From assembly GCA_964550425.1 (NCBI GenBank), contig CAZJZB010000005.1, positions 1 to 55,772 on the forward strand: a DNA stretch of 55,772 nucleotides, written 5' to 3'. Numbering within the stretch: the stretch's first letter is position 1; each line of letters opens with the position of its first letter. The notes below the pieces were generated by a model. That model was not told where the DNA came from. It saw only the letters and a list, made by a program, of their open reading frames with translations, and did no database searches. The position numbers and the translations under genes were made by a program. Shown here one piece after another: positions 1 to 20,802 of the stretch. This stretch comes from an uncultured Candidatus Saccharibacteria bacterium. Lineage in GTDB: Bacteria > Patescibacteriota > Minisyncoccia > Phycocordibacterales > Phycocordibacteraceae.

Positions 1-3000
1 AGCGTTTGAATACAGGAGGCGGTTGGCGTTGATGGAGGAGAGGCCGGTGCCGCCGGAGGAGACCGGGAGCGCAGTGGTGAAGCTGGCGGATGCGGCAGAG
101 AGTGCGCCGCTAATGGAGGCAGTACCGGTAGCGGTGAGGTTCGCAAGAGATAGATTGCCGGAGAAGTATCCGTTGCCGTGCACCGAGAGGAGTGATGATG
201 GGCTCGTCGTCCCGATACCGACGTTGCCGCCGAGCGTGGCGAAGTACGCGGAGCCGGTAGAACCGATTTGTGTCGTGGAAGCATTGCCAAGCGTGGTGAG
301 ACCGGTGACGTTGAGGGTGGAGGTGGCGGTGAGTGCTCCGCCGAAGAAAGAGGAGCCGCTGGTGTAGAGGTTGCCTTGGACGGAGAGGAGTTGTGAAGGA
401 GAGGTGGTGCCGATGCCGACATTACCGCTTATTATCATATTCCCTGCGCCAGCATCTGTACCAACATAACTATTACCAAGCGATAAACCTCCCGTTGCAC
501 TTAAACGCATTCTCTCGTTTGTTGCTCCTACTCCATTTGTGGCGAAACGAATCGGATTAGAACCCAACGTAATCATGTTGAGACCGCCGACATCGGAAAT
601 CATGTATCCCTGATTAACTATAAGGCCATTGGTGTTTGTTGTTCCGCCTACACCAAATTCAACCCATCCAGTTCCAGCCAGACCACTGTCATTAAATGCG
701 CGATACCCTGCGGCCCCACTTGCGGAAGAATTTACTATTGCTGTGTATGAAGTTTCAGAGGCTTTAGACCCAGTGATTACCATTGGGATACTCACATTGC
801 TTGTGCTAATTGTTACCGTATTCTCAGTTTGGGAATTTTTTAATTCAAGAACCGAGTCCAGATTTCCGTTGCCTCTCCCGACTGCGAAAGCCAACTTTCC
901 ATTTACATTGTTAGAAGAAATGGAATCGACCACATATCGTATATCCGCAATATTTAAGAATTTAGAACCTTCATAAGCATTCGCACCGAACTCGCCCACA
1001 ATATCATTGGCCACCGATATTGTGGGGCTGGCCAGTGTCCCGCGAGAACCGAAAAGGGCCACATATGGGTAGACGGATGTCCCAGCCGTCTGCGCGTTCC
1101 AACCAGCAAAATTTGATTCTCTACGTATTATCGCGTCCATCGGGGCAGTCACATTGAACGTAGTAATTGGTGCCAAATTTGTACCGTTGCCCACAAGGAT
1201 AGCCGGAAGCGTGAGAGAGTCTCCAGCGTCCACCTGCAGTTTTGCCGCAGGACTCGTGGTGCCGATGCCGACGTTGCCGGTCGGATTGATGTAGAGCGAG
1301 CCAGCCGGAGCGCCCTGATTCACTGTGAAGGCGGTGTTGTGCGCGACGATACCGCCGAAGGCGTACTCGCCTTCGGCGGGAACTTGGAACTTGGAACTTA
1401 GTTCTTGGACGAGCCCCGATGCAAACTCGCGGAGAGAGCGCGTACCTGCCGCATCAAGGCGAGCGAGCGAGAGCGCAAGCTGTTGTACGAGTCCGTCTTC
1501 AACATCCCGAGATCTCTCGCGAGAGTCAGTGTCGTCAGCGTCTCGTTCAACGATCCGAGCGATATTGTCAAAAATCGCGCGAAGTCCGTCTTGCTCTGCC
1601 TGCCCTGCCCCTCCGCGATGTTGAGTGGTACCGAGAGAACCGCGCGACGCAATTGGCTTATTATTCCGAATTGCTCCGACTTCGGAAACGCCAAAGAAAC
1701 TTTGTATACATCTCGCGAGAGTGTCATCGCTTCCTGCCAAACGCGCAGCTTTTCGTAGTTTGGTTGCAAGTTCGCATCTTCGTTCATTGCTATCAGTGTA
1801 TTCCGCTAAGCTCCAAGCTCCAAGCTCCAAGCTCTGTCGCAGGACAACAAGCTCTTCCTGCTCGGACGTGAGCGCAGTATTCGTCCGAGCGTCTATATAA
1901 TGTCCTGCGATGAAATTATGCGTGCCCTCTATTTCAACGTCATAGACATCTTCTTCAGCGACCGATTCGACGGAAACGATGCGGTCCCAAATGCCGCCGC
2001 CGTCCGCGGCGGCGGCGATTTCCATACCCTCTTTCAGCTCCGATACTTTGAGCCAGGAACCCTCGCCTGCGCGGACGTTATCCACACCAGTTTTGGAGAT
2101 GCTTGACAGCCCAAGCAGGTCGGCTATACTCGTATTACCTTTCTTCAAGACCCGCCCGCGAGGCGGGTTTTGCGTTACCGCATCACCTCCTATCAGAAGG
2201 CCGGATATGAATTTATTAAACAGACCGAGCGTCACGAATTTGCCAGCGGCGAGCAAAAGTTCACCTGATAGATACTTGCGGTCAGAAACAACAGTGACGT
2301 TCTTGCCGAGTTCGCGCAGGTGTTTTACCAACGGCACAAAGTCGCCATCACCGGAGAAAAGTACGAAGTTGTCATACTCATCTGAAAACTTAAGCGCGTC
2401 AGTTGCAATTTCGACATCAAAATTCGCTTTTGGTTGAAGAAGCCGCACTCCTATCATATCGAGTCGCTTGGCCTCGCGCAAAAGATTTGTACGAAGATTA
2501 ACGGGCAACGCTTCAATCCAGCGACGATTGAAAGGCTTCTGAAGTAAACCGAGAAAACTGATATTAAAATACTGGACGGGTTTTGTAACAACCGTGTAGC
2601 CGAAGGAGGTAATCTTTGCGAAGAATGAAGATGATTTTTCGTTACGTATATCAGTACCGTAATAGAAACGAATCGCCGTAATACCAGCGGCAAAGAGCGT
2701 ATCATAGAGCACTTCCAGATCAATAGTTCGATAACCGCGATCGCGATACCCAGCTTTTATATTCGCAAAGTCGATAAATGCTACAGAACGCGAAAGGCCA
2801 CGAGCGATGCTCGTAGCCTCTCCGTAGGCAGGACGAGATGCGAATCCAGCAGCAACCAACTTTTTAAGCCGGCTCGCATCTCTTTCCCCGTACTGTCCTC
2901 CAGTTCCTGGTAGACCAGAGTGAGCGGATCCAGGGTTGCCTTCACCGCCGGGAACATCTACTGCAACACGCCGCGCCAGATACGGATGATTCGCCGTGGT

Positions 3001-5838
3001 GCGGATTGACTTCCCCGAGGCCGTGGTGAGTTTGTACGTCTGCTTTGTGCCCATGTATGCGAGACGCTTCACTTTTGACCACACAAGCTCACCTGTTTTT
3101 TCATCAAGCGATTGAATCTCGTCACTTTCTTTAATATTGATGATTTCAACTTCGTCATACACATACACATCATCAGCGAAATATGCACGACCGGCATGAT
3201 ACACTCTACGCAAGCCGGCAGCTCGGTGCGGGATCAGGTTTGTCACTCTGTGTCCCGAGGGTTCGATTCCCTCTGCCGGCTTGATTAGGTTATCCACAGG
3301 ACCATTTTGCGTACTTGACGTGGAAAACCAGTTTGCTATACTCCCTTTGACAAACCTGGTCCATCCGCCCGAGTGGGACATACGAGGGGAATCGCCATCC
3401 GCAAGGGTGGCGGTTTCCTTTTCCGCTCCGTCTTTCGGTTCTTCATAGAATTCCCAACCGGCGTCTTCAAGGTCCTTCTTGCTGCGACGCCGCCGCAACT
3501 TCGTATCCCCCGTCACGCACTGCCCCGCGACGAAGCCGCCGGCGAAGGTGCTGGTTGCCGTCGTGGATGTTGCAAAGAAATTCTGGGCGACAACTTGGCC
3601 CGCGACCGAGAGCAGTGAGTACGGACTCGTCGTCCCGATGCCGACGTTGCCTCCGGTGGTGGCGAGGTACGTATTCCCTGTTACAGTAAGTTGCGTTGTT
3701 GAAGCATTGCTATTGAATTGTTGAAGCGCGGTCCATGTGTTTGCATTGCCGAGATTGAGCGAGAGGGTTGTCGCTGAACCGCCCACGAGTGCGCCAAGAG
3801 AACCAGAAGAAGAGAGCGAGGAACCGACCGCGACGGATGAGGTGGCGACTGTAGAGAAGTTTCCATAATGAAGCTGGTCGCTTGTGAAAGACGTTTGGCC
3901 GGTGCCGCCGTTCCCAACCGCGAGCGTGCCGGTGATGTCTGTCCCGAGATTAACGAGAGCGGTTGCGACGCTTCCTGCGGTCGCTTTGAGGAAGCCGGAG
4001 AGGTTAGCAATGGATAGATTGGAGGTGAAGAGATTTGAGGATGAGGCGGTTGTTGCGAAAAAGTTGGTTGTGGTTGCGTTTGTGGTCGTGCTGTTGATCG
4101 CGAGGAGGTTCGGAAACGTATTGTTTGCCGTGGTGGTCGCGGTGAAGTATGCTGCCACCGTTTCGCCAACAACCGACAATTTTGCGTATGGCGAGGTAGT
4201 GCCGATGCCGACGTTGCTTTCGGAGGAAATGCTGAGTGTGGAGGTTGCGGTCAGAGTCGTGCCGACGTATGAAAGTGTCTGGCCTGCCGTACCGGAAGGA
4301 AGAGAGCCGGAGGAAAGACAAGTGCCGTTGACGGCGTAGCATTGGTTGGCGGGAATGTTGATGCCGTTGCCATAGAAGGTGGTGGTGCCGGTGGTGAAGT
4401 TGGCGATGCCTTCGATGGAGAGGAGTGAGCCGGGGGTGGTGGTGCCGATGCCGACAGAGCCGTTCTCAAGTACGGTGAAGAGTGTTGTTGAAGCGGAGTT
4501 TACGAAATTGACGAGTTTAGTTGAGCCAGTGCCAGCACCCCAGACGGTTAGTTTTGCATACGGGGTGGTAGTGCCAATGCCAAGATTGGTCCCATCAAAA
4601 ATCAAATTCGAGCTGTTGGCAAACCCTGAACCGTCAAAGTACTCGACACCGTTTGTCACCCCGCCGGTAGTAGTGCCCGTACCGCCATTTGCAATAGGGA
4701 GTGCTAAGCCGCTGTATGAGACAGTGAACGTACCCGCTGATGTGATAGGAGAGCCCGAGACAGAAAGGAATGAGGGGACCGATATTCCAGCGGAAGTAAT
4801 ACCTGTGCTGATACCGCCGCTAACAATGACGGCTCTGCCGCCGGTAGCAGAAATAATCGGGTGCTCCGGTGTGCCCGTAATAGAAATATTCGTACCGGCA
4901 GTGATTGAGTTAATGACGTTTGATGCGAACACGCGACCAGAGCCAGCGTTGATATCGGAATTGCCAGTGTCGATGCCTCCGAGTGTCTGTAGGCGGCCGC
5001 TGAACACCGAGAAACCGAGGGTCCGTAACGCGCCGCCAATCGCTACCGACCCCGCGTTGATATTGGAATTGCTCGTGTCGATGCCTCCGAGTGTCTGCAG
5101 GCGGCCGCTGAACACTGAAGATCCCGAAACTTGGAATGAGCCGTTAATCGCGACCGGGGTATTGATACTGAGGAGAGTGGTGCTTGACGCGTTTTGCGCA
5201 CTGTTGATTTTGTTCACCAAAGGTAACCCTGAGTTTTTTGTACTGGTTGCGGCGACTAATTTTGAATCTGCCGCGGGTGGCGGGGAAGATGTATTCTCGT
5301 TTCCTAATGATCGTACCAGAGCAAGAAGAGATGCGAATGCGGTCTTTACACCGTCGATAGCGGAGACGGAAGAATGTATCAAAAGGGTTGATGCCTCGGA
5401 TAGAATACTCGCAGCACTTTGTGTCGATGCACTTACTGAGATCCGTTCAGGAATTAAAAGTGATTGAACCGTACTATTGACCGTACTGAAGTTTGTTGAA
5501 ACGCTTGCGACAACAGCGACAACAGTGAGAGTCATCGCGATTCTACCAAGGGTTAAGAAAGGGTGTCGAGCACCCATATTCTGACTTGATCGATCACCTT
5601 GGTATTCTATTTTACGTTTTTTCGATAGATCCTCATTCAGATTCTTATTCTGATCCTCTTGCAAATCAATAAATTTCTTAAATGAGAGCTCATCAACATA
5701 CCAGGAATTTCCAATTTTTTCTCCATCTACTTTCCCAAAACGACACATCCTTGATATGTAGTCGTTTGTATATCCTACTCGCCGAGCAAGTTCTTTGGAT
5801 GAAACTAACTGACGATTTAAAAGATTTTTGTTTTTCAT
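1..5838 (-). CDS. Giant surface/fibre-like protein (3'-partial, at least 1946 aa): N-terminal HTH, TM segment, S/T/G-rich GNVGIGTT repeats, contains an intein
   Basis: ATG at 5838. Manual triplet check found no stop down to base 1. Starts MKNKNLLNRQLVSSKELARRVGYTNDYISRMCRFGKVDGEKIGNSWYV; hydrophobic LTLGRIAMTLTVVAVVASV; seven xxVGIGTTxP-type repeats. Missing from the ORF track because no stop lies in the window. Confidence 0.95.
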   Translation of the reverse strand, partial: MKNKNLLNRQLVSSKELARRVGYTNDYISRMCRFGKVDGEKIGNSWYVDELSFKKFIDLQEDQNKNLNEDLSKKRKIEYQGDRSSQNMGARHPFLTLGRIAMTLTVVAVVASVSTNFSTVNSTVQSLLIPERISVSASTQSAASILSEASTLLIHSSVSAIDGVKTAFASLLALVRSLGNENTSSPPPAADSKLVAATSTKNSGLPLVNKINSAQNASSTTLLSINTPVAINGSFQVSGSSVFSGRLQTLGGIDTSNSNINAGSVAIGGALRTLGFSVFSGRLQTLGGIDTGNSDINAGSGRVFASNVINSITAGTNISITGTPEHPIISATGGRAVIVSGGISTGITSAGISVPSFLSVSGSPITSAGTFTVSYSGLALPIANGGTGTTTGGVTNGVEYFDGSGFANSSNLIFDGTNLGIGTTTPYAKLTVWGAGTGSTKLVNFVNSASTTLFTVLENGSVGIGTTTPGSLLSIEGIANFTTGTTTFYGNGINIPANQCYAVNGTCLSSGSLPSGTAGQTLSYVGTTLTATSTLSISSESNVGIGTTSPYAKLSVVGETVAAYFTATTTANNTFPNLLAINSTTTNATTTNFFATTASSSNLFTSNLSIANLSGFLKATAGSVATALVNLGTDITGTLAVGNGGTGQTSFTSDQLHYGNFSTVATSSVAVGSSLSSSGSLGALVGGSATTLSLNLGNANTWTALQQFNSNASTTQLTVTGNTYLATTGGNVGIGTTSPYSLLSVAGQVVAQNFFATSTTATSTFAGGFVAGQCVTGDTKLRRRRSKKDLEDAGWEFYEEPKDGAEKETATLADGDSPRMSHSGGWTRFVKGSIANWFSTSSTQNGPVDNLIKPAEGIEPSGHRVTNLIPHRAAGLRRVYHAGRAYFADDVYVYDEVEIINIKESDEIQSLDEKTGELVWSKVKRLAYMGTKQTYKLTTASGKSIRTTANHPYLARRVAVDVPGGEGNPGSAHSGLPGTGGQYGERDASRLKKLVAAGFASRPAYGEATSIARGLSRSVAFIDFANIKAGYRDRGYRTIDLEVLYDTLFAAGITAIRFYYGTDIRNEKSSSFFAKITSFGYTVVTKPVQYFNISFLGLLQKPFNRRWIEALPVNLRTNLLREAKRLDMIGVRLLQPKANFDVEIATDALKFSDEYDNFVLFSGDGDFVPLVKHLRELGKNVTVVSDRKYLSGELLLAAGKFVTLGLFNKFISGLLIGGDAVTQNPPRGRVLKKGNTSIADLLGLSSISKTGVDNVRAGEGSWLKVSELKEGMEIAAAADGGGIWDRIVSVESVAEEDVYDVEIEGTHNFIAGHYIDARTNTALTSEQEELVVLRQSLELGAWSLAEYTDSNERRCELATKLRKAARLAGSDDTLARCIQSFFGVSEVGAIRNNKPIASRGSLGTTQHRGGAGQAEQDGLRAIFDNIARIVERDADDTDSRERSRDVEDGLVQQLALSLARLDAAGTRSLREFASGLVQELSSKFQVPAEGEYAFGGIVAHNTAFTVNQGAPAGSLYINPTGNVGIGTTSPAAKLQVDAGDSLTLPAILVGNGTNLAPITTFNVTAPMDAIIRRESNFAGWNAQTAGTSVYPYVALFGSRGTLASPTISVANDIVGEFGANAYEGSKFLNIADIRYVVDSISSNNVNGKLAFAVGRGNGNLDSVLELKNSQTENTVTISTSNVSIPMVITGSKASETSYTAIVNSSASGAAGYRAFNDSGLAGTGWVEFGVGGTTNTNGLIVNQGYMISDVGGLNMITLGSNPIRFATNGVGATNERMRLSATGGLSLGNSYVGTDAGAGNMIISGNVGIGTTSPSQLLSVQGNLYTSGSSFFGGALTATSTLNVTGLTTLGNASTTQIGSTGSAYFATLGGNVGIGTTSPSSLLSVHGNGYFSGNLSLANLTATGTASISGALSAASASFTTALPVSSGGTGLSSINANRLLYSNA
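1352..1379. repeat. 28-bp palindrome (REP-like), family member 1
   Basis: ccgccgaaggcg-tact-cgccttcggcgg, perfect 12-bp stem; similar element at 54069-54096. Confidence 0.8.
1379..1401. repeat. Heptamer tandem array (GGAACTT)x3+AG, downstream arm of the stem enclosing the four-helix gene
   Basis: ggaacttggaacttggaacttag; inverted relative to 1806-1828. Confidence 0.9.
1398..1787 (-). CDS. Four helix bundle protein (23S rRNA IVS protein / Avd-like family), nested out of frame inside the intein
   Basis: YEKLRVWQEAM..FPKSEQFGIISQLRRAVLSVPLNIAEGQGR..FLTISLGSLNET is the family signature; own ATG and TAA. Confidence 0.92.
   Translation of the reverse strand: MNEDANLQPNYEKLRVWQEAMTLSRDVYKVSLAFPKSEQFGIISQLRRAVLSVPLNIAEGQGRQSKTDFARFLTISLGSLNETLTTLTLARDLGMLKTDSYNSLRSRSLALMRQVRALSASLHRGSSKN
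1806..1834. repeat. Heptamer tandem array (AAGCTCC)x~4, upstream arm of the stem
   Basis: ctaagctccaagctccaagctccaagctc; reverse complement of 1806-1828 matches 1379-1401 at 20/23. Confidence 0.9.
2078..2130 (+). promoter_or_regulatory. DnaA-box-like 9-mer plus sigma70-type promoter, antisense inside the intein (module A)
   Basis: TTATCCACA(2078-2086)-N16-TTGACA(2103-2108)-N16-TATACT(2125-2130). Confidence 0.7.
2146..2172 (+). terminator. Terminator-like hairpin of module A
   Basis: caagacccgcc-cgcga-ggcgggttttg; the G-U pair and GCGA loop favour the + strand. Confidence 0.6.
2224..2784 (-). other. NYN (LabA/DUF88, PIN-like RNase) domain in frame within the intein
   Basis: VAFIDFANI...RFYYG...KANFDVEIATDAL...FVLFSGDGDFVPLVKHLRELGKNVTVVS; the acidic catalytic motifs are present. 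Confidence 0.9.
3211..3283 (+). ncRNA. tRNA-like structure (acceptor stem plus T-arm, reduced D-arm, GTC-containing loop)
   Basis: caagccggca/tgccggcttg 10-bp stem stacked on GAGGG-TTCGATT-CCCTC; CAGG-TTTGTCAC-TCTG arm; TGaTACACT extended -10-like motif at 3197-3205. Confidence 0.55.
3290..3342 (+). promoter_or_regulatory. DnaA-box-like 9-mer plus sigma70-type promoter, antisense inside the intein (module B)
   Basis: TTATCCACA(3290-3298)-N16-TTGACG(3315-3320)-N16-TATACT(3337-3342), with extended TG; same spacing as module A. Confidence 0.72.
3348..3422 (+). ncRNA. Putative ~75-nt small RNA
   Basis: Lies between promoter B and an intrinsic terminator; 5' end is estimated. Confidence 0.5.
3387..3422 (+). 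terminator. Intrinsic terminator of module B
   Basis: gggaatcgccatcc-GCAA-gggtggcggtttcc-tttt; 14-bp stem with three G-U pairs valid only on the + strand; GNRA loop. Confidence 0.75.
4946..5115. repeat. Intragenic direct repeat, ~62 bp x2, period 108 nt
   Basis: 4946-5007 vs 5054-5115; encodes VFSGRLQTLGGIDTxNSxINAG twice. Confidence 0.85.
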
Positions 5839-6337: not shown

Positions 6338-6601
6338 TTAGATATCACTATATATCTCTACTTTATTGTTTTTAACACTAAGAACGGCGGTCTTGTATCT
6401 AAATGTCTGATCTTCTTTCATTCTTGCTCGTATGACAATTGGCTCATTTTTTATCATGGTTACGAAATTGGCATGCCCCGGTAGAACATCAAACTGACCA
6501 GCACTATTTGCTGATGAGACGCTGTACGCCACCCCTTCCCAAATACGCTCCTCTGCATTACTAATTGACACCGCAAATTCTTCGACTTGCTGTTGCTTCA
6601 T
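6338..6601 (-). CDS. atpC: F1 ATPase epsilon-like subunit (N-terminal beta-sandwich only)
   Basis: GQFDVLPGHANFVT motif; follows atpD; 87 aa. Confidence 0.85.
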   Translation of the reverse strand: MKQQQVEEFAVSISNAEERIWEGVAYSVSSANSAGQFDVLPGHANFVTMIKNEPIVIRARMKEDQTFRYKTAVLSVKNNKVEIYSDI

Positions 6602-8007
6602 GATAGTACGTCGGGATTATCCACTTCAAGGTCTTTGGTCGTTCCAATATACATGAATTTTTCTGGCTGGACTGAATCAAACTTCCCTTCCAGTATTGCC
6701 TCGACATCAGATACGACATCTTCGCGACTTACGTATACACCAGGAAGTCCCGAATGCTCTTCAGCGGTAACGGTTAATTGCGTCATGTAGTTTCGTAATC
6801 GCATCGCTCGTTCATACATACTGCGATCTTGCGCCGATAACTCACCCTCTCCGATGATGGTAACGATGCGAGCCAGCCGTTCGTACTGATTAAGCACCCG
6901 TATGGCTTCAGTAACCGATTTCAAATGTCGCTCGGTAATATAGGCGCGATCAAGCGCCAATGATTTTGATTTAAGAATATTAACCGCCGGGTAACGCCCC
7001 TCTTGACTCATCTCCCGCGCGAGTACCACAATGGCTTCAAAATAAGGGGTGGCGGCCGCAACTGACGGGTCGGACAGATCGTCAGCAGGAACATATATGG
7101 TTTGTATTGAGGTAATCGAATTTTTATCAGTGCTTACCAGACGGTTTTCGAACTGAGCGATTTGTGTTTGAAGCGTTGACTGATAGCCAAACTCAGACGG
7201 GATTTCTTCAAGAAGCGTCGAGAGCTCGTTTCCCGCCTGAACGAATCTGAATATATTGTCCACAAAAAACAATACATTGGTTTTTTCTTCATCGCGAAAG
7301 TACTCAGCCAGCGTCACAGCAGCCGCTCCAATCTTGAAACGAATTGCCGCATTTTCGTTAATATGCGCAACGATGAGCGCCGATCTCGCAAGCTCGCCGG
7401 TTTCTTGTAATAATTCCCAGAGCTCAAACCCTTCACGAATGCGTTCGCCAATACCGGTAAAAATCGTGACATTTTTATGTTCCTTATTGAGGTTTCGAAT
7501 CATCTCTGTCAGGAGCGCCGTTTTGCCGACACCTGCGCCTCCTACAAGTCCGAGTCGTCCACCCTCAATGATCGGCATAAAGAAGTCGATAACCTTAATC
7601 CCGGTCTCAAGCAATTTCCGCTCCTTCCCTAATTTCAACCCTGTGGTGCGCGTGATTGGGTTAATCGGTCGAGAATCGCTATAGGCAAGCATCTCGCCTC
7701 CGTCAACAGGCCGGCCATACAAATTGATGGCGCGCCCAAGCACACATGTTCCTACGGGAATGGAGAGCGTAGCGCCATCAGTCACAATACGCATGTTTCG
7801 AGACACATTCTCTTTTGGAGAAAGGAGTAGGCAGTAGAGCATGTCCCTGCTGGAATAGGAGTGGACCTCGAGCTGTACATCCACCGCATCTTCTGCGGAA
7901 AGAAGCTCGAGAAGCGACGGACGGTACTCACTCTCGCAATGCACAAGGACTATTTGCCCTTGCACCCCGTATACGCGCCCCACAAATTGTTTTGTTATTT
8001 TTTCCAT
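6598..8007 (-). CDS. atpD: F1 ATPase beta subunit (divergent)
   Basis: LETGIKVIDF, GGAGVGKT, GIGERIREG, FFVDNIFRFVQAG, SITSIQTIYVPADD. Confidence 0.97.
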   Translation of the reverse strand: MEKITKQFVGRVYGVQGQIVLVHCESEYRPSLLELLSAEDAVDVQLEVHSYSSRDMLYCLLLSPKENVSRNMRIVTDGATLSIPVGTCVLGRAINLYGRPVDGGEMLAYSDSRPINPITRTTGLKLGKERKLLETGIKVIDFFMPIIEGGRLGLVGGAGVGKTALLTEMIRNLNKEHKNVTIFTGIGERIREGFELWELLQETGELARSALIVAHINENAAIRFKIGAAAVTLAEYFRDEEKTNVLFFVDNIFRFVQAGNELSTLLEEIPSEFGYQSTLQTQIAQFENRLVSTDKNSITSIQTIYVPADDLSDPSVAAATPYFEAIVVLAREMSQEGRYPAVNILKSKSLALDRAYITERHLKSVTEAIRVLNQYERLARIVTIIGEGELSAQDRSMYERAMRLRNYMTQLTVTAEEHSGLPGVYVSREDVVSDVEAILEGKFDSVQPEKFMYIGTTKDLEVDNPDVLS

Positions 8008-8843
8008 TTTGAAATCGCGGAGAAAGATTCGAGCAGACGCAGATCGTTGAAATTTGCGGCCTTTCTACGCATCATTCGGCGCGAGCGAATGATTTCCTCT
8101 TTTGAACGATCCTGGGCTGTGTTCATAGGAATCAATCGTGCTGCGGTGCGCGAGAGCTCTGATTCAAGCATGACTCGCTTGAAGAGCAGGTAACGAACTT
8201 TCGTCTCAAAAAAATTAAGGATTTTCGGAAGTTCCGGTTCAAAAATATAATCAAATGCCAGTGTTACCTCATTCCCTGTCTCGACATGCGGTGCATACGT
8301 AATATCTTGCATAACTACTTTTTGATTGAACACATTGCGAAATGAGGGGTAGAATATCTGCACCTGGCTGTACGCAGCAACGCTCTTTAGAAATTGTCGC
8401 CTCTCTTCTTCTGTCGGTTCATCTTCTGTAAATGCATAGTAGGAAGAACGTTTCTGTAAATCGGGAGTATTCCCCATAAGCATCTTCCCCGTCCTACCTA
8501 TGACGATGTAGTCGGAGGTGACGCCACTGTTCATATGCCGAGTAAAAGCTTCTATCACCTCTGCATTGACCGCTCCATAGAAACGTATGTTCGACGTGAA
8601 CGCTACGGTCACGGTTTGAGTTACGGTTGCTGATTTCTGCGGCAACTCGCCACGATCAAATGCCGTCTGTTTAATAGATTGATAGAGAATCGCGATGTCC
8701 TCATAAAAGGCCTTGTTTTTTTCGAAGGCGGCGCGCAATCGGTTTATTTTTTCGGCGCTCACATCAAACAGCGCCGAGGCGACGAAACCGATCGTCTCGA
8801 GGTCTTCCAATTCATCCTGTCGTGTTCCTAGGGCGTTTGACAT
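7995..8843 (-). CDS. atpG: F1 ATPase gamma subunit (divergent)
   Basis: Between alpha and beta; TSNIRFYGAVN, YIFEP, SELSRTAARLIPM. Confidence 0.9.
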   Translation of the reverse strand: MSNALGTRQDELEDLETIGFVASALFDVSAEKINRLRAAFEKNKAFYEDIAILYQSIKQTAFDRGELPQKSATVTQTVTVAFTSNIRFYGAVNAEVIEAFTRHMNSGVTSDYIVIGRTGKMLMGNTPDLQKRSSYYAFTEDEPTEEERRQFLKSVAAYSQVQIFYPSFRNVFNQKVVMQDITYAPHVETGNEVTLAFDYIFEPELPKILNFFETKVRYLLFKRVMLESELSRTAARLIPMNTAQDRSKEEIIRSRRMMRRKAANFNDLRLLESFSAISKWKK

Positions 8844-10297
8844 AGTGTGTGCAGATGCGTCACCGTGCTTTCAAGCTTCTTTTGGAACTGTTCAAACGAT
8901 ATGTTGCCTCGACGCGCACTTGCTACCACCGATTCAAGCGCGGTATCACGCGCATTTGAAATGGCGGCAATAATTCTATCTCGATTGTATGAGACGAATG
9001 CAACGTCTTTTCCATCGAACAATGTCGTGAAGACGAGCGTCAACAGCACGATCTGTACTTCAACAGACAATGCAATCATCGGCTCTTGGTTAAGAAGAAT
9101 TCGCACCGATTGTCCCCGAGCAATGATGCGCTGGGTCTGTTCTGAAAGCTGTGTTCCGAACTGACCGTAACCTCGTTGACGTTCATATTGTGCAATGAGC
9201 GCATTCACACGAATGGAAAGCTGTTTGGCCAGCATGCTTTGTGTGCTGTGACCGACACGGGTTACCGACTGCTCAGGCACCACGGCGGGGAAATGCCCTT
9301 CCGCATGAAAAAGTGGCGAGAAGAAAAGATGTCCGTCAGTCGCCGATACCAGATTGGTAGAAACGAGATTGGTAATATCCTCAATACTCGTCTCGAGCAC
9401 GGGTAAAATAGTGATACTTCCGCCACCGATACTCTTATTGAAACATCCGCCTCGCTCAAGCAGACGGGCTTGCTGATAAAACATATCGCCCGGATATGAT
9501 TCGCGGCCCGGCACTTTCCCAGACAAGAGAGCGATCTCGCGAAAATATTTTGCATGGCTCCCGAGATCGTCGAGCACGACCAGCACGTCCTTCCCTTTCA
9601 TAGAAAAATATTCTGCGAGCTCGAGTGCAACTACGGGTGTCAAGTACACCATGGGAGCCGGATCATCGGAAAGCGAGACAAGAATGATGGCGTCGCTATT
9701 TCCTTGTTCGTTCAGAAGATTCGCGATTACCTCTTCGACGTACGCAACCGGCCGTCCGATAAGCGCATAGATGCACACAACTCCCGATTCTTTCTGGTGG
9801 ACGAAGACGTTTTCAATAAATTTTCTCTTCCCACTGCTCAGAGGGCCCACGATGAGCTGCCGCTGGCCTTTGGCGATAGGAATTAAAATGTCGATCGCCG
9901 ACATGCCGGTGAGAAGGGGAGAGGTCATCGGTGCACGAGCGCTCATACGAGGAGCATCCGCCTCCATTCTCAGTGGCGTGTTGTCTGGCGGAAAACTACC
10001 CAAGCCATCAAGCGGTTCGCCAAGGACGTTTATCGTACGCCCGAAGAGGTGCTCCCCAAACGAAAACTGAATTCCCTTTGGATCTATAATGAACTGATCT
10101 CCCGCTCTCGGATTGCCCCGACCAAACAGATACGCCTCGACACTATCCTCTCGGAATGCTGTGACGAGTGCTCGTTGCCCTTTTGCATTGATAATAACAG
10201 TATTCACACGAGCCGACGGTAATCCCTCGAGTGTAAGAAGGTACCCCTTCGCCTTGATGACGAAGCCAATTTCTCCTTCAATAATGCGCTGCTCCAT
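8828..10297 (-). CDS. atpA: F1 ATPase alpha subunit (divergent)
   Basis: IPIAKGQRQLIVG, PGRESYPGDMFYQQARLLER, TDGHLF, SVTRVG. Confidence 0.95.
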   Translation of the reverse strand: MEQRIIEGEIGFVIKAKGYLLTLEGLPSARVNTVIINAKGQRALVTAFREDSVEAYLFGRGNPRAGDQFIIDPKGIQFSFGEHLFGRTINVLGEPLDGLGSFPPDNTPLRMEADAPRMSARAPMTSPLLTGMSAIDILIPIAKGQRQLIVGPLSSGKRKFIENVFVHQKESGVVCIYALIGRPVAYVEEVIANLLNEQGNSDAIILVSLSDDPAPMVYLTPVVALELAEYFSMKGKDVLVVLDDLGSHAKYFREIALLSGKVPGRESYPGDMFYQQARLLERGGCFNKSIGGGSITILPVLETSIEDITNLVSTNLVSATDGHLFFSPLFHAEGHFPAVVPEQSVTRVGHSTQSMLAKQLSIRVNALIAQYERQRGYGQFGTQLSEQTQRIIARGQSVRILLNQEPMIALSVEVQIVLLTLVFTTLFDGKDVAFVSYNRDRIIAAISNARDTALESVVASARRGNISFEQFQKKLESTVTHLHTLCQTP

Positions 10298-10299
10298 AG

Positions 10300-10824
10300 T
10301 TAGGGTTTCGCCATGCTTTGAGTCAACCTCTCATGTAATGCGGTCTGATTTTTAATGAGATACCGATTGAAGCTGAAATCGCGAAGCATATTGTTCCACA
10401 CCAGTCGACAACCAACTGCGATTGATGGATCGATGTCAAAATCAATAAGGAGATCGGGGCTCACTTCCCGATGTGCCCACATGCCGATGACCTCCACGTC
10501 TGCACGAGAGAGCGCGACCGGCACCGTCAGTGAAAGAGTTTTCAACTTTTTCGCATCCTCAGTGAGATGATCGAGCATGTCGTACAAAGATTCTTTCGTG
10601 AAGGATTCGAGGAACGAAAGCGGCAGCGAGCGCAAAAACGCATTGTCGACGGGCGATTTCCCGCTGTACGCGGCAAATTGTTCGATTCCTTCTTTGCTTG
10701 CAGATGCATCGCGTTTCGTAAAGAATATGTATTCAAAAAATTCTCTCGTGAGACTTATGTCGTGCGCGAAGTCCGCCCGAGTATAGGTGTGTTCCGTAAA
10801 TATCTTTAGGGACGGGTTCGTCAT
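10300..10824 (-). CDS. atpH: F1 ATPase delta-like subunit
   Basis: Upstream of alpha; C-terminal IDPSIAVGCRLVWNNMLRDFS resembles the delta/OSCP C-terminus. Confidence 0.7.
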   Translation of the reverse strand: MTNPSLKIFTEHTYTRADFAHDISLTREFFEYIFFTKRDASASKEGIEQFAAYSGKSPVDNAFLRSLPLSFLESFTKESLYDMLDHLTEDAKKLKTLSLTVPVALSRADVEVIGMWAHREVSPDLLIDFDIDPSIAVGCRLVWNNMLRDFSFNRYLIKNQTALHERLTQSMAKP

Positions 10825-11522
10825 GATGGTGTCTCGAACACGCCCTCTCGCTTCGCCTCAGCGAGCGCAGCGAGAATAATGCCGCGATGGTCGTCAAGCG
10901 AAAGCGATTTATGTAACGCGATACGCGCAGTATCCTCGACGAGTCCGACAATTTTCTTATCCAGGATCGCAAAACGTTCTTGTGTATAGACCGTAACGGT
11001 CTGTCGGGCAAAATCGATTTCTTTCGACAGCTCGTCTGACATGCGTTTTTTAATTTCTTCCATTAACCCCTGATACTCTTTTTGCGCCTGCATGCTGACA
11101 CCGGAAAATATTTTCTTTATGTTCTCCGATTCGTCTTGTAACGCTTGTTCGGCAAACTGAACCTGTTGTATCAAAAGATCTTTTGTATGTGTGGCGATTT
11201 CTTCCAGATGCGCGGCTTGTAGAGCGTGAAATTTTTTGTCTTCCTCTATACGGTCCGTAAATATCTTTTCTGCTTCCATCTGCGCACGCATCCTTAGAGC
11301 GCTCCCCTGTTCCCGGGCATCGATGAGGATGTGCTCCGCCCTCTCTTGCGCCTTTTTCACTGTCCGGTCGAACAGAGGGGTTACGAGGTAGTATAGCCGG
11401 TTCCCGAACTGAATGACGACTACGATGAGCGCTAAAAGCGCAAGGATCCCAAGCATCAAGAGCAGCGTGGGAAGCAGCGGATCGGAAAGAATGTTTGACC
11501 ATAACGATAGGATGATATTCAT
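10821..11522 (-). CDS. Subunit b-like protein (N-terminal TM plus long coiled coil)
   Basis: Single N-terminal hydrophobic helix, A/E/K/Q-rich helix, position before delta. Confidence 0.65.
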   Translation of the reverse strand: MNIILSLWSNILSDPLLPTLLLMLGILALLALIVVVIQFGNRLYYLVTPLFDRTVKKAQERAEHILIDAREQGSALRMRAQMEAEKIFTDRIEEDKKFHALQAAHLEEIATHTKDLLIQQVQFAEQALQDESENIKKIFSGVSMQAQKEYQGLMEEIKKRMSDELSKEIDFARQTVTVYTQERFAILDKKIVGLVEDTARIALHKSLSLDDHRGIILAALAEAKREGVFETPS

Positions 11523-11542
11523 GTTATTTATTTTACATATCG

Positions 11543-12406
11543 TTACAGTTGCACGAAGAGAATTATGAGTCCGATGAATAGTCCCGTTGCGGTAACAAGA
11601 ATAATCAGTACGGTATTGAGCATTACCATGGACTGAATGGAGGTTTTCGCAAGCGGATTGCGTCCTACTGAAATAATACTGTCTTTCATATTCGAACCAA
11701 AACTTCGAAATGCGATGCGGATAGAGCCGATGACGACAATAGCGGCAAGTATATATTTGATTAACGTAGCGAGTGGTACTGACACACCAAGCACGTTTAC
11801 GCCGGATGCCGAATCACCTCCCCCAGAACCGGCGATTGGTGACCCTCTCGCATCTAACGCTTTCGAGCCAACGGTGAGCAGCACACGAATAGATCCCTCA
11901 TCCATCGTTGATGTACTCACTGCAGTTGATGTAACAATCGGTACTGTGGGAAAAGAATCAAGCGCAATACCAAGGACAAAGGATGCTGCGGGATCAGCTT
12001 TCTGACCCTTACCGGGAATAGATGATGAGGTGATGTAATCTCCAGCACTAATTGGGCCATTCGCTGTTGTTACTTGTACATACACCTCCCCTGAACTAAT
12101 GATCGGAACGCTTTCCGTGCTGGTGCGGAACACGATTGTCGGATTAGTCACCACAACTCCAAACAGGTTCGAGTCGTTGACCTCTTGTGCAAGACGAAAA
12201 GTCTGCGTAGAGCGGTCAAACGATACAAGATCACCGGGCTCCGCTACACCTCCAGAAATAAGTTGGGTTCGCGCAATCATGGTCTCGCTGGATTGCGCGT
12301 ATGCTGCAGAAGGAAGAATGAATACAAGGATACTCGCCAGAAACATCATGAATTCTGTCGTAGCAGTAATGAATGTTCGGCGGTGATAATGCGAAATAAC
12401 ACCCAT
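11543..12406 (-). CDS. Exported protein with a C-terminal subunit-c-like helical hairpin lacking the ion-binding carboxylate
   Basis: Likely ATG 12406, just after the upstream stop; signal peptide ..FILPSAAYA/Q; beta domain GVVVTNP..GEVYVQV..NGPISAGDYITSS; C-terminal TM-SVGRNPLA-TM. Confidence 0.75.
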   Translation of the reverse strand: MGVISHYHRRTFITATTEFMMFLASILVFILPSAAYAQSSETMIARTQLISGGVAEPGDLVSFDRSTQTFRLAQEVNDSNLFGVVVTNPTIVFRTSTESVPIISSGEVYVQVTTANGPISAGDYITSSSIPGKGQKADPAASFVLGIALDSFPTVPIVTSTAVSTSTMDEGSIRVLLTVGSKALDARGSPIAGSGGGDSASGVNVLGVSVPLATLIKYILAAIVVIGSIRIAFRSFGSNMKDSIISVGRNPLAKTSIQSMVMLNTVLIILVTATGLFIGLIILFVQL

Positions 12407-12408
12407 AT

Positions 12409-13122
12409 TTATTGAGTCCCATGTGCGAATACACTTGCCATCTGCATGGGAATACGAGCGACAGCTATGGACAAATAATCGCCAATACTTGTGAGAGTCC
12501 CCACGGTCACATGCGCAATTGTTGGTGTGGCAATCGCAATACCGTACGCGAGAGACACCTCTGCCGCAATGGCGGCATGTGTCGCTGTTATGACGAATTC
12601 TCCAAGCGCGAGAGATGTCCGACCAATAATCGCCGGAAGCGTTTGAAGTGTCCCTACCGACTGCAAGAACACCGGGTTGGATTGGACCGCAATGGTAATA
12701 AATTCTGCTGCAATTACAACGGAAACGATGAACATGACCGCACATACTATCTCAATCCATATTGAAGGGGGGGTCTTCAGATCATCAGAAACAATTTGGT
12801 GCGTTGTTATGGTATGGGGCTCCGCTGAAGAAAATGATAGGGATATGCTCGGAGGCGCATGGTACGTTCGCTGTTCCTGTGCGCGCGAGCGCGTAGTATT
12901 GGCATTTGTAGATGTGCGTGTTTTATTGGAGTTCTGTTTGTCATATTGTGCAACAAAATGCTGGAGGGAATTCTGTTCAATAAGCCAGCTTCGACCCAAT
13001 CGCTGTGCATTTATTTTCTTGGTGCGAACAAGATGCGCAATGTAACTCGGCGTATATCTGAAAAGTTTAGACGCCTCCTTAGTGGTGATAAAACCCTCAT
13101 GAAGCATTATGGTCTCATTCAT
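12409..13122 (-). CDS. HTH (excisionase/MerR-like) domain membrane protein
   Basis: FITTKEASKLFRYTPSYIAHLVRTKKINAQRLGRSWLI; TM IWIEIVCAVMFIVSVVIAA. Confidence 0.8.
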   Translation of the reverse strand: MNETIMLHEGFITTKEASKLFRYTPSYIAHLVRTKKINAQRLGRSWLIEQNSLQHFVAQYDKQNSNKTRTSTNANTTRSRAQEQRTYHAPPSISLSFSSAEPHTITTHQIVSDDLKTPPSIWIEIVCAVMFIVSVVIAAEFITIAVQSNPVFLQSVGTLQTLPAIIGRTSLALGEFVITATHAAIAAEVSLAYGIAIATPTIAHVTVGTLTSIGDYLSIAVARIPMQMASVFAHGTQ

Positions 13123-13362: not shown

Positions 13363-14139
13363 CTATTTATTATAGATTGTTACTCCGCTTATAATTCTTA
13401 CTTGGGCAAGCGAGGTTATATATGTATCAAAATATCCGCTCCCGATAACTGCGGTAGCTACCGCAATTGTCGCAAATAATATACCGACGACTTGCAACGC
13501 GCTCATAATTATCAACTTTCCTTTTCGCACATCTTGCTGTGTTGACTGCTCTTTAGATTCATTTGACGATTGAATCTTCGGGTGAATATGTGGTAGAAGG
13601 TCTTTTGGAGGTGGTTTGTAAATGGCGTGAATGGGTACATTTATATCTCTGCTGTCGTGCTTTATTTCTGGCTTTTCTTCGTCTTTTTCCTGTTGTGAAG
13701 GTTGGGCGATGGGGGCGACCGGTCCGGTATCCATTATACTTTTATATGTGCCCATATCTTCTACACGATCGAACCATGCCTGCCACGATTCCTGCAGGTG
13801 CTGTGAGACCTCTGCTTCTGTATTTCTTAGACGGTCGATAAAAGGAATTTCTTTTTCTACGGACGTTTCGTAGCGCGGAAATTCTGAAGATAATGAGAGT
13901 TTATCCCTCTCCGTGAGCCCGACCCCTTTCAGGAGCACTGGTGCGGGAGATTCGATTGTATCGCCAAAACGATGGTCCTGAATTGCCGCCTCAAGAACAT
14001 ACCAGCTGCGTCCAACGAGTCGAGCCGGTACCCGCCCCTCTCTACAAAGTTGGCCTATATAGTCCTTCGCGTAGCCAGTCAGTTTCGCAGCTCGTTTTGA
14101 CGATATATATTTTTTCTCCTCTATAAGTATCTCATCCAT
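13363..14139 (-). CDS. HTH (excisionase/MerR-like) domain protein with C-terminal TM
   Basis: Likely start MDEILIEEKK; YISSKRAAKLTGYAKDYIGQLCREGRVPARLVGRSWYV; C-terminal hydrophobic helix. Confidence 0.82.
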   Translation of the reverse strand: MDEILIEEKKYISSKRAAKLTGYAKDYIGQLCREGRVPARLVGRSWYVLEAAIQDHRFGDTIESPAPVLLKGVGLTERDKLSLSSEFPRYETSVEKEIPFIDRLRNTEAEVSQHLQESWQAWFDRVEDMGTYKSIMDTGPVAPIAQPSQQEKDEEKPEIKHDSRDINVPIHAIYKPPPKDLLPHIHPKIQSSNESKEQSTQQDVRKGKLIIMSALQVVGILFATIAVATAVIGSGYFDTYITSLAQVRIISGVTIYNK

Positions 14140-14190
14140 ACCTGCAGTATAGCCGTATCTCGGCAAGCAAGGAAGGGTTGTGCACAACGC

Positions 14191-15636
14191 CTATCCTATC
14201 TTCTTAATGATAAGTTCTTTCAAGATTGTCGGATTCCCGGCCCCACCACTTCCCTTCATAGCCATCCCAATAAGGTACTGCAGTGCTGCTTGCTTACCGG
14301 TCTTATATTCATTAACCGCCTTTTCATTCTCGATAATGATCGCCTCTACAATCTTCACGAGTTCTTCCTCATTGCTTTTTTGAAGATATTTTTTAGAAAT
14401 CTCAGCTAAATCTCCCCCGTTCAAAAATACGTCCGTAATGGCGTCTTTGACCCCCCTCGAAGAAATATGTCCGTGCATGAAGTCGTCTAGGACAGTTCCC
14501 AACCCTTCGGGAGTAATATTCTTTAGACCTGTATCTCCAAATTTTGAAACCAGACCCGCGATGTCAGATCCTATGTAGTTTGCGATCAAATTATATGCGC
14601 CCGGATGTATGTTGGAAGTTTGGTCAAATAATTTCCCTAATCGCTCATCGGAGAGGAACATCTCGATATACTCCGGTGATATTTTAAATTCTTGAGTTGC
14701 GCCTTTTTCTTGATAGCGCGCTCGACGCTCCCATGGAAGCTCCGGTAATGACGCGCGTATCGCCTCTGAAGAAAATTCTGAAATCTCTGAGAGAAAGAGT
14801 TTGGGGAGATCCGGCTCCGGAAAATAACGGTAATCAGCACTCCCCTCCTTGAATCGTTGGTGGAAGGTCTCTTGTTTCGCTTCATTCCACCCGCGGGTCT
14901 CTTGCACCACTTTTCCACCCTTCTCAAGAAGAGCTGTCTGACGCCCTATCTCAAAGGCGATCGCGCGTTCAACGGAACGGAATGAGTTCAGATTCTTGAC
15001 CTCCACCTTTGTGCCAAAAATTCCCTCTTTGGTCGAGACGGAAATATTCGCTTCAACGCGCATTTCGCCCTTTTCAAGATTCGCTTCGCTCGCGCCAAGC
15101 GTACGCAACAGAAGCTGCAGTTCCCGCGCGAAATGCCCTGCCGTCTGCGCATCAGGAATAACCGGCTCGGTGACAAGCTCCATGAGCGGAATGCCGGCGC
15201 GATTGAAATCGACCGAGCTCTTTCCCTCGGCTTTGCCTTTGGGACCTTCGGCTCGTCCGATGTGAATTGAACGCGCAGTATCCTCTTCAAGATGTACCCG
15301 GGTGATGCGGACACCCACAAGCTCTCCGCCCGTAACAAGCGGATGTTCGTACTGGCTAATTTGATAGCCCTTGGGAATATCGGGGTAGAAATAACTCTTA
15401 CGATCAAACTCGCTGAAATCGGCAAGAGTGCCGCCGATAGCGGCGCCGATACGCAGAATATGTCGTACCGCCTCCTGATTGATGACCGGCAACGTGCCCG
15501 GGTGCGCCACACAGACCGGACATATATTCACATTTGGCCGCATCTCATCAGGGTTGTTCGCGGAGTCGCAAAACATCTTGGTTCGTGTCTTGAGTTCCGC
15601 ATGAATTTCCAAACCTATCGTCGGAATATATTTCAT
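14191..15636 (-). CDS. gatB: Asp/Glu-tRNA amidotransferase subunit B
   Basis: IGLEIHAELKTRTKMFC, YFYPDIPKGYQISQ, DYRYFPEPDLP. Confidence 0.98.
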   Translation of the reverse strand: MKYIPTIGLEIHAELKTRTKMFCDSANNPDEMRPNVNICPVCVAHPGTLPVINQEAVRHILRIGAAIGGTLADFSEFDRKSYFYPDIPKGYQISQYEHPLVTGGELVGVRITRVHLEEDTARSIHIGRAEGPKGKAEGKSSVDFNRAGIPLMELVTEPVIPDAQTAGHFARELQLLLRTLGASEANLEKGEMRVEANISVSTKEGIFGTKVEVKNLNSFRSVERAIAFEIGRQTALLEKGGKVVQETRGWNEAKQETFHQRFKEGSADYRYFPEPDLPKLFLSEISEFSSEAIRASLPELPWERRARYQEKGATQEFKISPEYIEMFLSDERLGKLFDQTSNIHPGAYNLIANYIGSDIAGLVSKFGDTGLKNITPEGLGTVLDDFMHGHISSRGVKDAITDVFLNGGDLAEISKKYLQKSNEEELVKIVEAIIIENEKAVNEYKTGKQAALQYLIGMAMKGSGGAGNPTILKELIIKKIG

Positions 15637-15758
15637 AGAGTTTGCCGACTTGCCCCGTTAGAAATGGGCTTTATTTCTAATGGGGTGGTCGGACGATACA
15701 TGATGCCCACAGTATGCAGTATGTGGTGGGCAGTAGGCAAATGCGCTGGTTCGGCTGC

Positions 15759-16733: not shown

Positions 16734-16756
16734 AAATAGTAACGAGCTGCTTCAGA

Positions 16757-20774: not shown

Positions 20775-20802
20775 TACGGCGCAGTATAGCATTGTGGCCT
20801 CT

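Follow-up and report, generated by a model that had tools for sequence, protein, structure and literature searches.

An additional F1-like ATPase with a c-derived, probably outward-facing subunit and no recognisable ion path in Patescibacteria

A stretch of 55,772 nucleotides (nt) from an uncultured member of the Patescibacteria (contig CAZJZB010000005.1 of assembly GCA_964550425.1), which was analysed at its full length and is called the window here, carries on its minus strand a set of seven genes for a c-like, a b-like, a delta-like, an alpha, a gamma, a beta and an epsilon subunit, in this order. It corresponds to the entire contig C5 in the source genome (G000; 738 kb, 28 contigs, estimated 100% complete). 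Based on profile searches, predicted structures and the comparison of loci, the set is regarded with moderate confidence as a second, self-contained F-type ATPase, no longer coupled to ions and most likely acting as a rotary motor that is driven by ATP and has an outward-facing output. It is a widespread new variant of the F1-like ATPase that keeps b, delta and an outward-facing c-derived subunit. The original prediction for this DNA had described a coupled run of these seven genes without atpB and without a canonical atpE, placed directly upstream of, and co-oriented with, a giant surface gene, and each of these features was recovered: all seven reading frames are open and tightly coupled (junctions from c-like to epsilon of +20, -4, +2, -16, -13 and -4 nt), there is no gene for subunit a, the site of the ion-binding Glu is hydrophobic in the c-like protein, and the giant gene follows on the same strand 499 nt downstream of epsilon. 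Its wider proposal of an ATP-hydrolysing rotary device that is not a synthase and acts on extracellular cargo is supported by the sequences, and the ring, its rotation and the action at the surface are the parts of it that we infer.

The c-like protein begins with a signal peptide ending AYA/Q, which is followed by a beta-structured ectodomain of ~140 amino acids (aa); a linker of ~25 disordered residues connects this domain to a two-helix hairpin at the C-terminus. In an AlphaFold2 (AF2) model built with 13 orthologues, with a mean predicted local distance difference test score (pLDDT) of 72, a helix at residues 2-18 is followed by strands at residues 25-162 (pLDDT ~85-92), by residues 167-190 with pLDDT below 50 and by hairpin helices at residues 193-230 and 232-265. 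A profile of 40 c-like hairpins searched against the PDB returned ATP synthase c chains only (18 of 18 matches at E<=10, best 1.1e-5), and in these profile alignments the canonical ion-binding Glu of c falls on Leu, Ile or Val. Helix 2 is free of acidic residues in 40 of the 41 c-like proteins examined, and a GRNP loop is present in all 41 as well as in the canonical c of the source genome. By Foldseek, the hairpin matches c subunits with a root-mean-square deviation (rmsd) of 1.7-1.8 and 23-24% identity (2wie_A, TMt 0.76, rmsd 1.8, 24%), and Pfam ATP-synt_C matched one of 13 c-like sequences, with E 0.34. VIA-align matches between the hairpin and c subunits (Z 8.5-9.4) were discarded as evidence because designed helical hairpins reach Z 10, and the match of the hairpin fold alone thus carries no weight.

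The fold of the ectodomain resembles phage capsid-decoration proteins and the C-terminus of phi29 gp12 (VIA-align Z 13.4, with rmsd 2.0 over 106 aa, and Z 13.1; Foldseek E 1.8e-5 to phage decoration proteins), and weak Pfam XM1_gp53 matches in five of 13 c-like sequences agree with a decoration-protein fold. A head-to-tail association of three ectodomain copies was predicted with a score of 0.43 (best control 0.00), at least 71% of the contacts agreeing between runs at pLDDT of at least 74; among solved homo-pairs 20 of 30 attained this score, and among single chains one of 23. This predicted self-association may reflect likeness, the fold family having been solved as oligomers. Both termini of c subunits face the outside of the cell, and given this topology a signal peptide followed by an N-terminal domain fits an extracellular ectodomain; by analogy with c, the ~140-aa beta domain would therefore sit outside the membrane. 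When the ectodomain was sought elsewhere in the source genome with tblastn and a hidden Markov model (HMM), the c-like gene alone matched.

Neither a PF00119 gene nor any conserved gene for a polytopic membrane protein, as expected of subunit a, was found in or beside the operon in any locus. Because the set has no subunit a and no carboxylate in c, it has no ion path, and ATP synthesis or ion pumping is very unlikely. It could still be argued that the enzyme translocates ions, as a synthase or a pump, through an a subunit that went unrecognised and an unusual ion site such as an Asn in helix 2. This polar position is indeed conserved, lying 13 residues past the loop Pro (Asn in 11 and Asp in one of 13 c-like sequences of the near clade, which is the one of two F1-like clades that includes the window), and the alpha of this set is the sole F-type alpha at E<=1e-120 in 20 of 38 carriers, which would otherwise have no rotary pump. 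However, the Asn lies five residues towards the cytoplasm from the canonical site, where it aligns to Ser of the Spirulina c, and it is replaced by Ala, Gly or Ser in several sequences of the far clade. In addition to the lack of a conserved polytopic membrane gene, PF00119 was over its cut-off in none of ten genomes without an ordinary F-type set. These are five genomes of the order of the source genome that show only this alpha (G106, G196, G223, G266 and G271, of which G106 also carries an extra pair that looks V-type) and five further genomes of the phylum with only this set, including the single-contig G673 and G524, in which neither PF00119 nor PF00137 was found at E<=1. An exported domain of 140 aa on each c subunit has no role in ion transport either, and we consider such an ion-translocating enzyme very improbable.

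The catalytic parts named in the original prediction, namely the P-loop and GER of beta and the Arg finger of alpha, are present in the window as GGAGVGKT, GIGERIRE (together with FVDNIFRF) and SVTRVG, respectively. All 45 beta-like sequences retain Walker A and GER, and 43 of 44 alpha-like ones retain the Arg finger. Against PDB chains, the window beta scores ~345 bits with F1 betas, 307 bits with the G1-ATPase beta of Mycoplasma mobile (9io5_A) and 132 bits with type III secretion ATPases; the window alpha reaches at most 272 bits with PDB alpha chains, its residue 3 aligning to residue 21 of the chain. The P-loop of the window alpha is degenerate (GPLSSGKR), as it is throughout the near clade, where the residue after GPxxSGK is R, D, S, N, G, K or T, and where two sequences have lost the Lys; in the far clade it is ordinary (GDRKTGKT-like). 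A peripheral stalk is present, made of a delta/OSCP homologue and a putative b-type long-helix protein. The delta-like profile (22 orthologues) matches bovine OSCP (E 3.9e-6), Paracoccus delta (7.2e-6, over positions 8-164 of the 174 in the profile) and E. coli delta (4.8e-5). The b-like protein was modelled by AF2 (mean pLDDT 87.8) as a single helix at residues 17-203 (187 residues) followed by a helix at residues 209-225, which is the shape of subunit b, but longer. Its profile matches b, b' and V-type E chains weakly (E 1e-3 to 2e-2), amid apolipoproteins and designed helices, and the gene sits between those for c-like and delta-like in all loci. Since the catalytic and shaft parts are intact and the b-delta stator is kept, rotation against a membrane-anchored stator presumably still matters. 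The short epsilon noted in the original prediction (87 aa) turned out not to be special, the canonical epsilon of this genome being no longer, with 81 aa.

The degenerate P-loop of near-clade alphas, including the two that have lost Lys, and the lack of Pfam recognition for three of the seven proteins would also be compatible with a decaying duplicate without function. This is hardly credible given that the frames are open and tightly coupled, that the catalytic motifs stand in 45 of 45 betas, that the c-like profile is matched at E<=1e-30 by at least 1026 of 1.84 billion representatives (50% identity level), and that the set is the sole F-type set in complete single-contig genomes; decay is effectively refuted by this conservation.

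The export ATPases of type III systems are homologous to F1 and have partners that resemble b/delta (FliH) and gamma (FliJ), and the FliI-FliH-FliJ complex likewise combines an F1-related ATPase with stalk-like partners in the service of extracellular assembly. An ATPase of this kind could export or assemble the giant proteins, the c-like ring forming part of a channel, and such a role would suit an operon that adjoins genes for very large exported proteins and, in the near clade, has SecA, Obg and GatB a few genes upstream. In contrast, the window beta is far closer in bit score to F1 betas than to type III ATPases (~345 versus 132 bits), and the head is built from different alpha and beta chains with epsilon, delta and b, whereas the type III ATPase is a homohexamer without alpha, epsilon or c homologues. 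The type III ATPase also uses an export gate, for which no genes occur in the loci, and the N-terminal membrane-helix anchor of the giants suits the Sec route. Furthermore, the pores of c-rings are plugged with lipid in known enzymes. Export is the least likely of the three options named in the original prediction (export, assembly or movement), and we judge a FliI-FliH-FliJ-like export or assembly ATPase improbable.

The source genome carries a complete ordinary operon, a-c-b-delta-alpha-gamma-beta-epsilon (atpB-E-F-H-A-G-D-C), on contig C7, with Glu in its c. Both atpB and atpE, whose presence elsewhere in the genome the original prediction had left to be checked, are therefore found, but with an F1 set of their own. 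PF00006 gave four matches over its cut-off in the genome, two on C5 and two on C7, and the single subunit a (135 bits) and the single Pfam-recognised c (65 bits) are both on C7. As this a and c come with their own full complement of alpha, gamma, beta and epsilon, the genes of the window make up an additional F1 set, and the case that the original prediction had named as its refutation, in which there is no other F1 set, does not apply. Compared with the ordinary F1Fo operon (atpBEFHAGDC), the window set has the same order from c onward, seven homologues or look-alikes and the catalytic residues, but it lacks a and the c carboxylate; its c-like protein gains a signal peptide and an extracellular beta domain, the N-terminal helix of alpha is shorter, the P-loop of near-clade alphas is degenerate, b is longer, and alpha and beta form clades of their own. 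It coexists with the ordinary operon or, in some genomes, stands in its place.

Alpha and beta trees placed the F1-like chains apart from those of ordinary synthases, in agreement with the separate branch that the original prediction had taken as a sign of a distinct enzyme. The rows were chains from retrieved loci; of the N-ATPases, 10 alphas and 8 betas remained after thinning, and partial frames of <440 aa were dropped. The alpha tree (80 rows, quick search, LG+G4) used betas as outgroup, and the beta tree (78 rows, quick search) a C20 mixture model. In the alpha tree, the near clade (24 sequences) has a support of 100, the far clade (20 sequences) a support of 99, and a third group (support 95) contains the ordinary Patescibacteria, Firmicutes, Omnitrophota and N-ATPase alphas; near and far clades join at a support of 61 only. 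In the beta tree, the two F1-like clades join with a Shimodaira-Hasegawa-like approximate likelihood-ratio (SH-aLRT) support of 100 on a stem of 0.62, and ordinary betas stand apart (support 99). An approximately unbiased (AU) test did not reject the joining of F1-like alphas with ordinary Patescibacteria alphas (p 0.43). The set is not a recent copy of the host's own operon, and it may have originated by an ancient duplication within the phylum or by transfer. The N-ATPase (atpDCQRBEFAG), which Dibrova and co-workers are said to have described in 2010 (cited in PMC10656485), is reportedly another second, laterally spread F-type operon that stands beside the ordinary one. N-ATPases differ from the window set in keeping a and an ion-binding c and in their order of beta, epsilon, then a, c, b, alpha and gamma, and their chains lie outside the F1-like clades in both trees: the 10 alphas form a clade (support 99) that groups with ordinary alphas, and the 8 betas group weakly (66). 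The pattern [LIV]P[IL]AKGQRQ taken from the alpha-like proteins also retrieved ~37 N-ATPase operons from many phyla (within loci L054-L121); P[IL]AKGQRQ is common to N-ATPase and F1-like alphas and not to ordinary ones, the source genome's own alpha having IPIGRGQRE. A 4-sequence alpha alignment, used to retrieve related loci, likewise drew in N-ATPase alphas, and ordinary ones as well. One genome of the order, G103, holds three F-type sets (L033, which is F1-like, L136 and L135), one of the other two being ordinary and the third divergent. This third set comprises a, c and a long b of 284 aa (ATP-synt_B 5.6e-5), together with alpha, gamma and beta, and forms a long branch outside the main groups in both trees.

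Full-length c-like genes were found in three of 40 relatives, and partial matches to the ectodomain alone in nine others, within frames of 457-4564 aa. Among the 301 genomes of the order, a 4-sequence alpha-like profile detected some F-type alpha in 132 and an alpha-like protein of at least 495 bits in 12, the source genome included, the next best score being 358. The operon order c-b-delta-alpha-gamma-beta-epsilon is shared by 13 loci of relatives with a visible upstream side (a fourteenth begins only at alpha, and two of the loci lack a called delta frame), by 17 loci viewed of the 34 F1-like loci from public genome records (delta-like undetected by profile in two, c-like in one) and by eight further loci of the phylum, with the c-like gene of L145 not among the matches listed. 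In the phylum, scores of 513 bits or more with a mixed alpha profile were obtained for ~38 of the 401 genomes sampled; this figure rests on a cut of our own choosing because the profile separates uncleanly, ordinary alphas reaching ~494 bits, F1-like alphas descending to ~513 and three scores lying at 501-504. One sampled genome, G481, is flagged as unpublished and does not belong to the 38. Five far-clade carriers have an ordinary a elsewhere in the genome, and thus, together with the carriers in which this is the only set, some genomes combine the F1-like operon with a normal ATP synthase and others have it in the absence of one.

The c-like family is extensive, with 705 clusters (90% level) at E<=1e-5 among 8000 candidates scored, almost all of them unnamed or hypothetical, with one JGI record named subunit c; nearly all of the top 150 representatives are full-length, at 250-300 aa. 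The titles of public records name Candidatus Kaiserbacteria, Parcubacteria, Paceibacterota, Curtissbacteria, Levybacteria and Sungbacteria. Titles of 'uncultured Gammaproteobacteria' or 'Pseudomonadales' also occur on the operon, in automatic third-party assemblies (L053, L057, L058, L066, L069, L074, L077, L078, L081, L090, L092, L100 and L103), two of the genomes so titled measuring 1.0 and 1.4 Mb, and some automatic assemblies with the operon are titled Saccharibacteria. Both kinds of label are doubted because the alphas are nearly identical to those of Curtissbacteria or Levybacteria, and the Gammaproteobacteria and Pseudomonadales labels are probably wrong.

The operon is repeatedly found beside genes for giant proteins that combine an N-terminal helix-turn-helix (HTH) domain with a membrane anchor. 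The giant of the window has a cytoplasmic HTH at its N-terminus, a membrane helix near residue 93, seven G[IV]GTT[ST]P motifs (by regular-expression count) and an insert with Pfam NYN (2.8e-21) and Intein_splicing (1.3e-12) matches. Five genes of this HTH/anchor family are present in the source genome, three of which flank the operon and two of which form an adjacent small-plus-giant pair on contig C2; the operon of the window looks as if it had been inserted into such a pair. The linkage foreseen in the original prediction recurs: in the near clade, the next co-oriented gene downstream belongs to the HTH/anchor family in 16 of the 21 assessable loci (of 23), encodes another large protein (587-1597 aa) in four and is unrelated in one, and a family gene lies directly upstream of the c-like gene in seven of 23 loci (the window, L018, L033, L035, L036, L043 and L048). 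In the far clade, a giant of 540-2501 aa with a cytoplasmic N-terminus and a membrane helix stands beside the operon in at least 12 of 32 loci, mostly upstream and divergent, and nine of 10 tested N-termini pass the Pfam cut-offs for MerR or HTH_17. The C2 pair is on the plus strand (68192-69010, 273 aa; 69661-78303, at least 2881 aa, running to the contig end) with no ATPase between its genes. Assemblies break inside the downstream giant gene in L033, L036, L037, L039-L041, L043-L047, L050 and the window, and the full length and C-terminal domains of the giants are consequently mostly unseen.

In the proposed mechanism of the rotary motor, the c-like hairpins would form a ring bound to gamma and epsilon, and ATP hydrolysis in beta could turn this ring against the b2-delta stator. 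The crown of extracellular domains on the ring, possibly self-associated head to tail, may then pass torque or movement to structures at the surface. The most likely partners would be the flanking HTH/anchor giants, which are the best candidates for the target by genomic linkage and by analogy with mycoplasmas, where the MIB-MIP surface system and the legs used in gliding are served by F1-like ATPases (PMC12994834; PMC8406192), and the role could be that of moving, tensioning or resetting adhesive fibres, as mycoplasma F1-like ATPases do for surface proteins. A more specific form of this motor is put forward as a tentative possibility: it would be the first rotary ATPase with a rotor exposed outside the cell, in which an ion-site-free ring with a decoration-like crown grips giant adhesive fibres and turns, winds or resets them. 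If this were true, ultra-small episymbionts would possess an ATP-powered surface motor for attachment to, detachment from or movement on their hosts, and many calls of 'F-type ATPase present' in Patescibacteria would not denote a proton pump.

Several observations weigh against an outward-acting motor. Without subunit a, the set lacks a known part that would hold the b anchor against the ring and take up the counter-torque. The alpha-like N-terminus is ~18 residues shorter than that of ordinary alpha, whose N-terminal helix binds delta according to the accessible text of PMC12994834. Helix 1 of the c-like protein lacks the GxGxGxG packing motif that is present in the source genome's own c, and in L062 (Sungbacteria) the c-like protein carries ~300 fused cytoplasmic residues and an extra membrane helix, which is awkward for a freely turning ring. 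The ectodomain was not found in the visible part of the window giant or in the rest of the source genome. As for the linkage, 13 of the 25 far-clade loci with a visible downstream gene have that gene on the opposite strand, a giant is found downstream in the far clade at L139 only, and the downstream gene there is usually unrelated. Finally, the HTH/anchor family occurs in 164 of the 301 genomes of the order, namely in 11 of the 12 with the ATPase and in 153 of the 289 without it, and such proteins are hence widespread in the absence of the ATPase.

This last distribution would fit a regulatory link between operon and giants. The giants could be ToxR-like, membrane-tethered MerR/HTH_17 factors that sense contact outside the cell and control the ATPase operon, and the target of the ATPase would then lie elsewhere at the envelope (wall, S-layer or host surface). 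The topology of a cytoplasmic DNA-binding fold at the N-terminus, one membrane helix and a large outside part agrees with such factors, as does the divergent transcription of far-clade giants from the operon, a divergent layout being usual for MerR regulators and their targets. On the other hand, regulators that reach 1000-4900 aa and bear fibre-like repeats would be unusual, the near-clade giant is downstream and co-oriented rather than divergent, and the second small-plus-giant pair, on C2, has no other obvious target operon. A purely regulatory link is thus thought unlikely, and a motor that acts on surface structures is still preferred.

The rotary motor proposed here has its closest counterparts among mycoplasmas. 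As described in the accessible text of PMC3369863 and PMC12994834, the mycoplasma Type 3 F1-like X0 is likewise an extra F1-like set beside a genuine F1Fo, with alpha-, beta-, gamma- and epsilon-like subunits, and its surface system needs ATP hydrolysis. Its alpha also lacks the N-terminal helix (PMC12994834, in the part available). Type 3 also includes a protein whose described layout, with its signal peptide, large non-membrane part and two membrane helices at the C-terminus, resembles that of the c-like protein, and, on the same accounts, Type 3 is like the window set genetically tied to surface proteins, which are MIB-MIP in mycoplasmas and the HTH-bearing anchored giants here. In contrast, Type 3, a cluster of seven genes, has no b and no delta in those accounts, both of which have look-alikes in the window set, and its members include a membrane protein of 12 helices and a small cytoplasmic one, neither of which was found in the present loci. 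The Type 2 G1-ATPase, the gliding motor of M. mobile, is F1-like and powers the movement of giant surface proteins rather than ATP synthesis, according to the portions available of PMC8406192 and 10.1101/2024.06.11.597861. The G1 motor is described there as forming dimeric chains in the cytoplasm together with phosphoglycerate kinase; those portions mention no b, delta or c-like ring for it, and the window beta is no closer to the G1 beta (307 bits) than to ordinary betas (~345 bits).

F1-like ATPases have been reported as mycoplasma-specific, with no equivalent known outside mycoplasmas, in the accessible text of PMC3369863 and PMC12994834. Ion-uncoupled F1-like ATPases were thus thought to be peculiar to mycoplasmas, and a differently built version is found here in a large family of Patescibacteria. 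A literature search on F1-like or rotary ATPases in Patescibacteria and the candidate phyla radiation (CPR) gave no description, although these operons may appear as incomplete F-type sets in Supplementary Data 4 of PMC10656485 and in the ProAD tables. 'Minimal complexes' of CPR are mentioned in PMC10656485, and incomplete F-type sets in Patescibacteria are ascribed mainly to incomplete genomes in PMC11738941, as far as the accessible parts of these papers go. Surveys that count alpha and beta or that blame incomplete genomes may therefore over-call ATP synthases (PMC11738941 and PMC10656485, in the same parts). The set is the sole F-type set in about half of the sampled carriers, which bears on their energy metabolism, and it provides a testable case of the delivery of cytoplasmic torque across the membrane to the cell surface.

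The positions of the ATPase genes and of the flanking HTH/anchor genes are collected in Table 1. None of the c-like, b-like and delta-like proteins of the window has a Pfam match over cut-off. Scans for promoters and terminators at the ends of the operon yielded no more than shuffled sequence does, and no terminator was found by scanning between epsilon and the giant gene.

Table 1. Genes of the F1-like ATPase set and adjoining HTH/anchor genes in the window
Feature	Position	Strand	Size	Remarks
c-like rotor subunit	11543..12349	-	268 aa	counted from MMFLAS; alternative ATG at 12406 adds 19 aa
b-like peripheral-stalk subunit	10821..11522	-	233 aa	N-terminal membrane helix and very long helix
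delta/OSCP-like subunit	10300..10824	-	174 aa	without Pfam match; identified by profile
alpha-like subunit	8828..10297	-	489 aa	Pfam PF00006 3.4e-58, PF00306 1.7e-12
gamma-like central shaft	7995..8843	-	282 aa	Pfam PF00231 1.2e-22; conserved in all loci
beta-like catalytic subunit	6598..8007	-	469 aa	Pfam PF00006 9.2e-63
epsilon-like subunit	6338..6601	-	87 aa	beta-sandwich domain alone; Pfam PF02823 3.1e-12
giant surface protein	1..5838	-	at least 1946 aa	gene cut by contig end; family HMM 67 bits
small HTH/membrane-anchor protein	12409..13122	-	237 aa	Pfam HTH_17 7e-7; family HMM 53 bits
second small HTH/membrane-anchor protein	13363..14187	-	274 aa	family HMM 82 bits; Pfam HTH_17 2.4e-4, below cut-off

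The first of the two small HTH genes stops 59 nt short of the c-like gene's MMF start, or 2 nt short of the alternative ATG; it is an associated gene outside the universal seven-gene set. Its product was considered as a substitute for subunit a and rejected, having an HTH_17 domain and one clear membrane helix and belonging to a family that was not seen beside far-clade operons. Further upstream on the minus strand (14191-20792) are a GatB-like gene (14191-15636), an Obg-like gene (15759-16733), a gene similar to short-chain dehydrogenases (16757-17422) and secA (18231-20792; Pfam SecA_DEAD 3.8e-107), the names GatB, Obg and dehydrogenase having been read from the sequence. Synteny of GatB and SecA is shared by several families of the order, and Obg was seen in G004 and L043 alone. 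The intein-like insert of the giant lies at ~1336-3519 on the minus strand (giant residues ~774-1500), starts with CVTGDTKL and has an HNF block near residue 1307; it possibly ends at VAHN/T near residue 1500, the exact end being uncertain.

Variants of the operon were met in other loci. The fused c-like proteins of L062 (6957-8699) and P0217 (525 aa) begin with an HTH-like part, and the extra membrane helix replaces the signal peptide. In L039 (4784-6466), L040 and L041 (4841-6484), which belong to one family of the order, the gene directly upstream of that for the c-like protein encodes an additional exported protein of 540-560 aa, in which the ectodomain recurs (87-110 bits to the c-like profile) along with a CarboxypepD_reg-like domain and several membrane helices. 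Epsilon is encoded on the opposite strand in L039 and L040, and no epsilon gene was detected in L041. A phosphoglycerate kinase is associated with the F1-like motor of M. mobile (10.1101/2024.06.11.597861, in the part available), and a gene for another glycolytic enzyme, the cofactor-independent phosphoglycerate mutase (iPGM_N), lies between the c-like and b-like genes in the far-clade loci L053 (3478-4821, 4.5e-67) and L103 (7137-8831, 3e-76).

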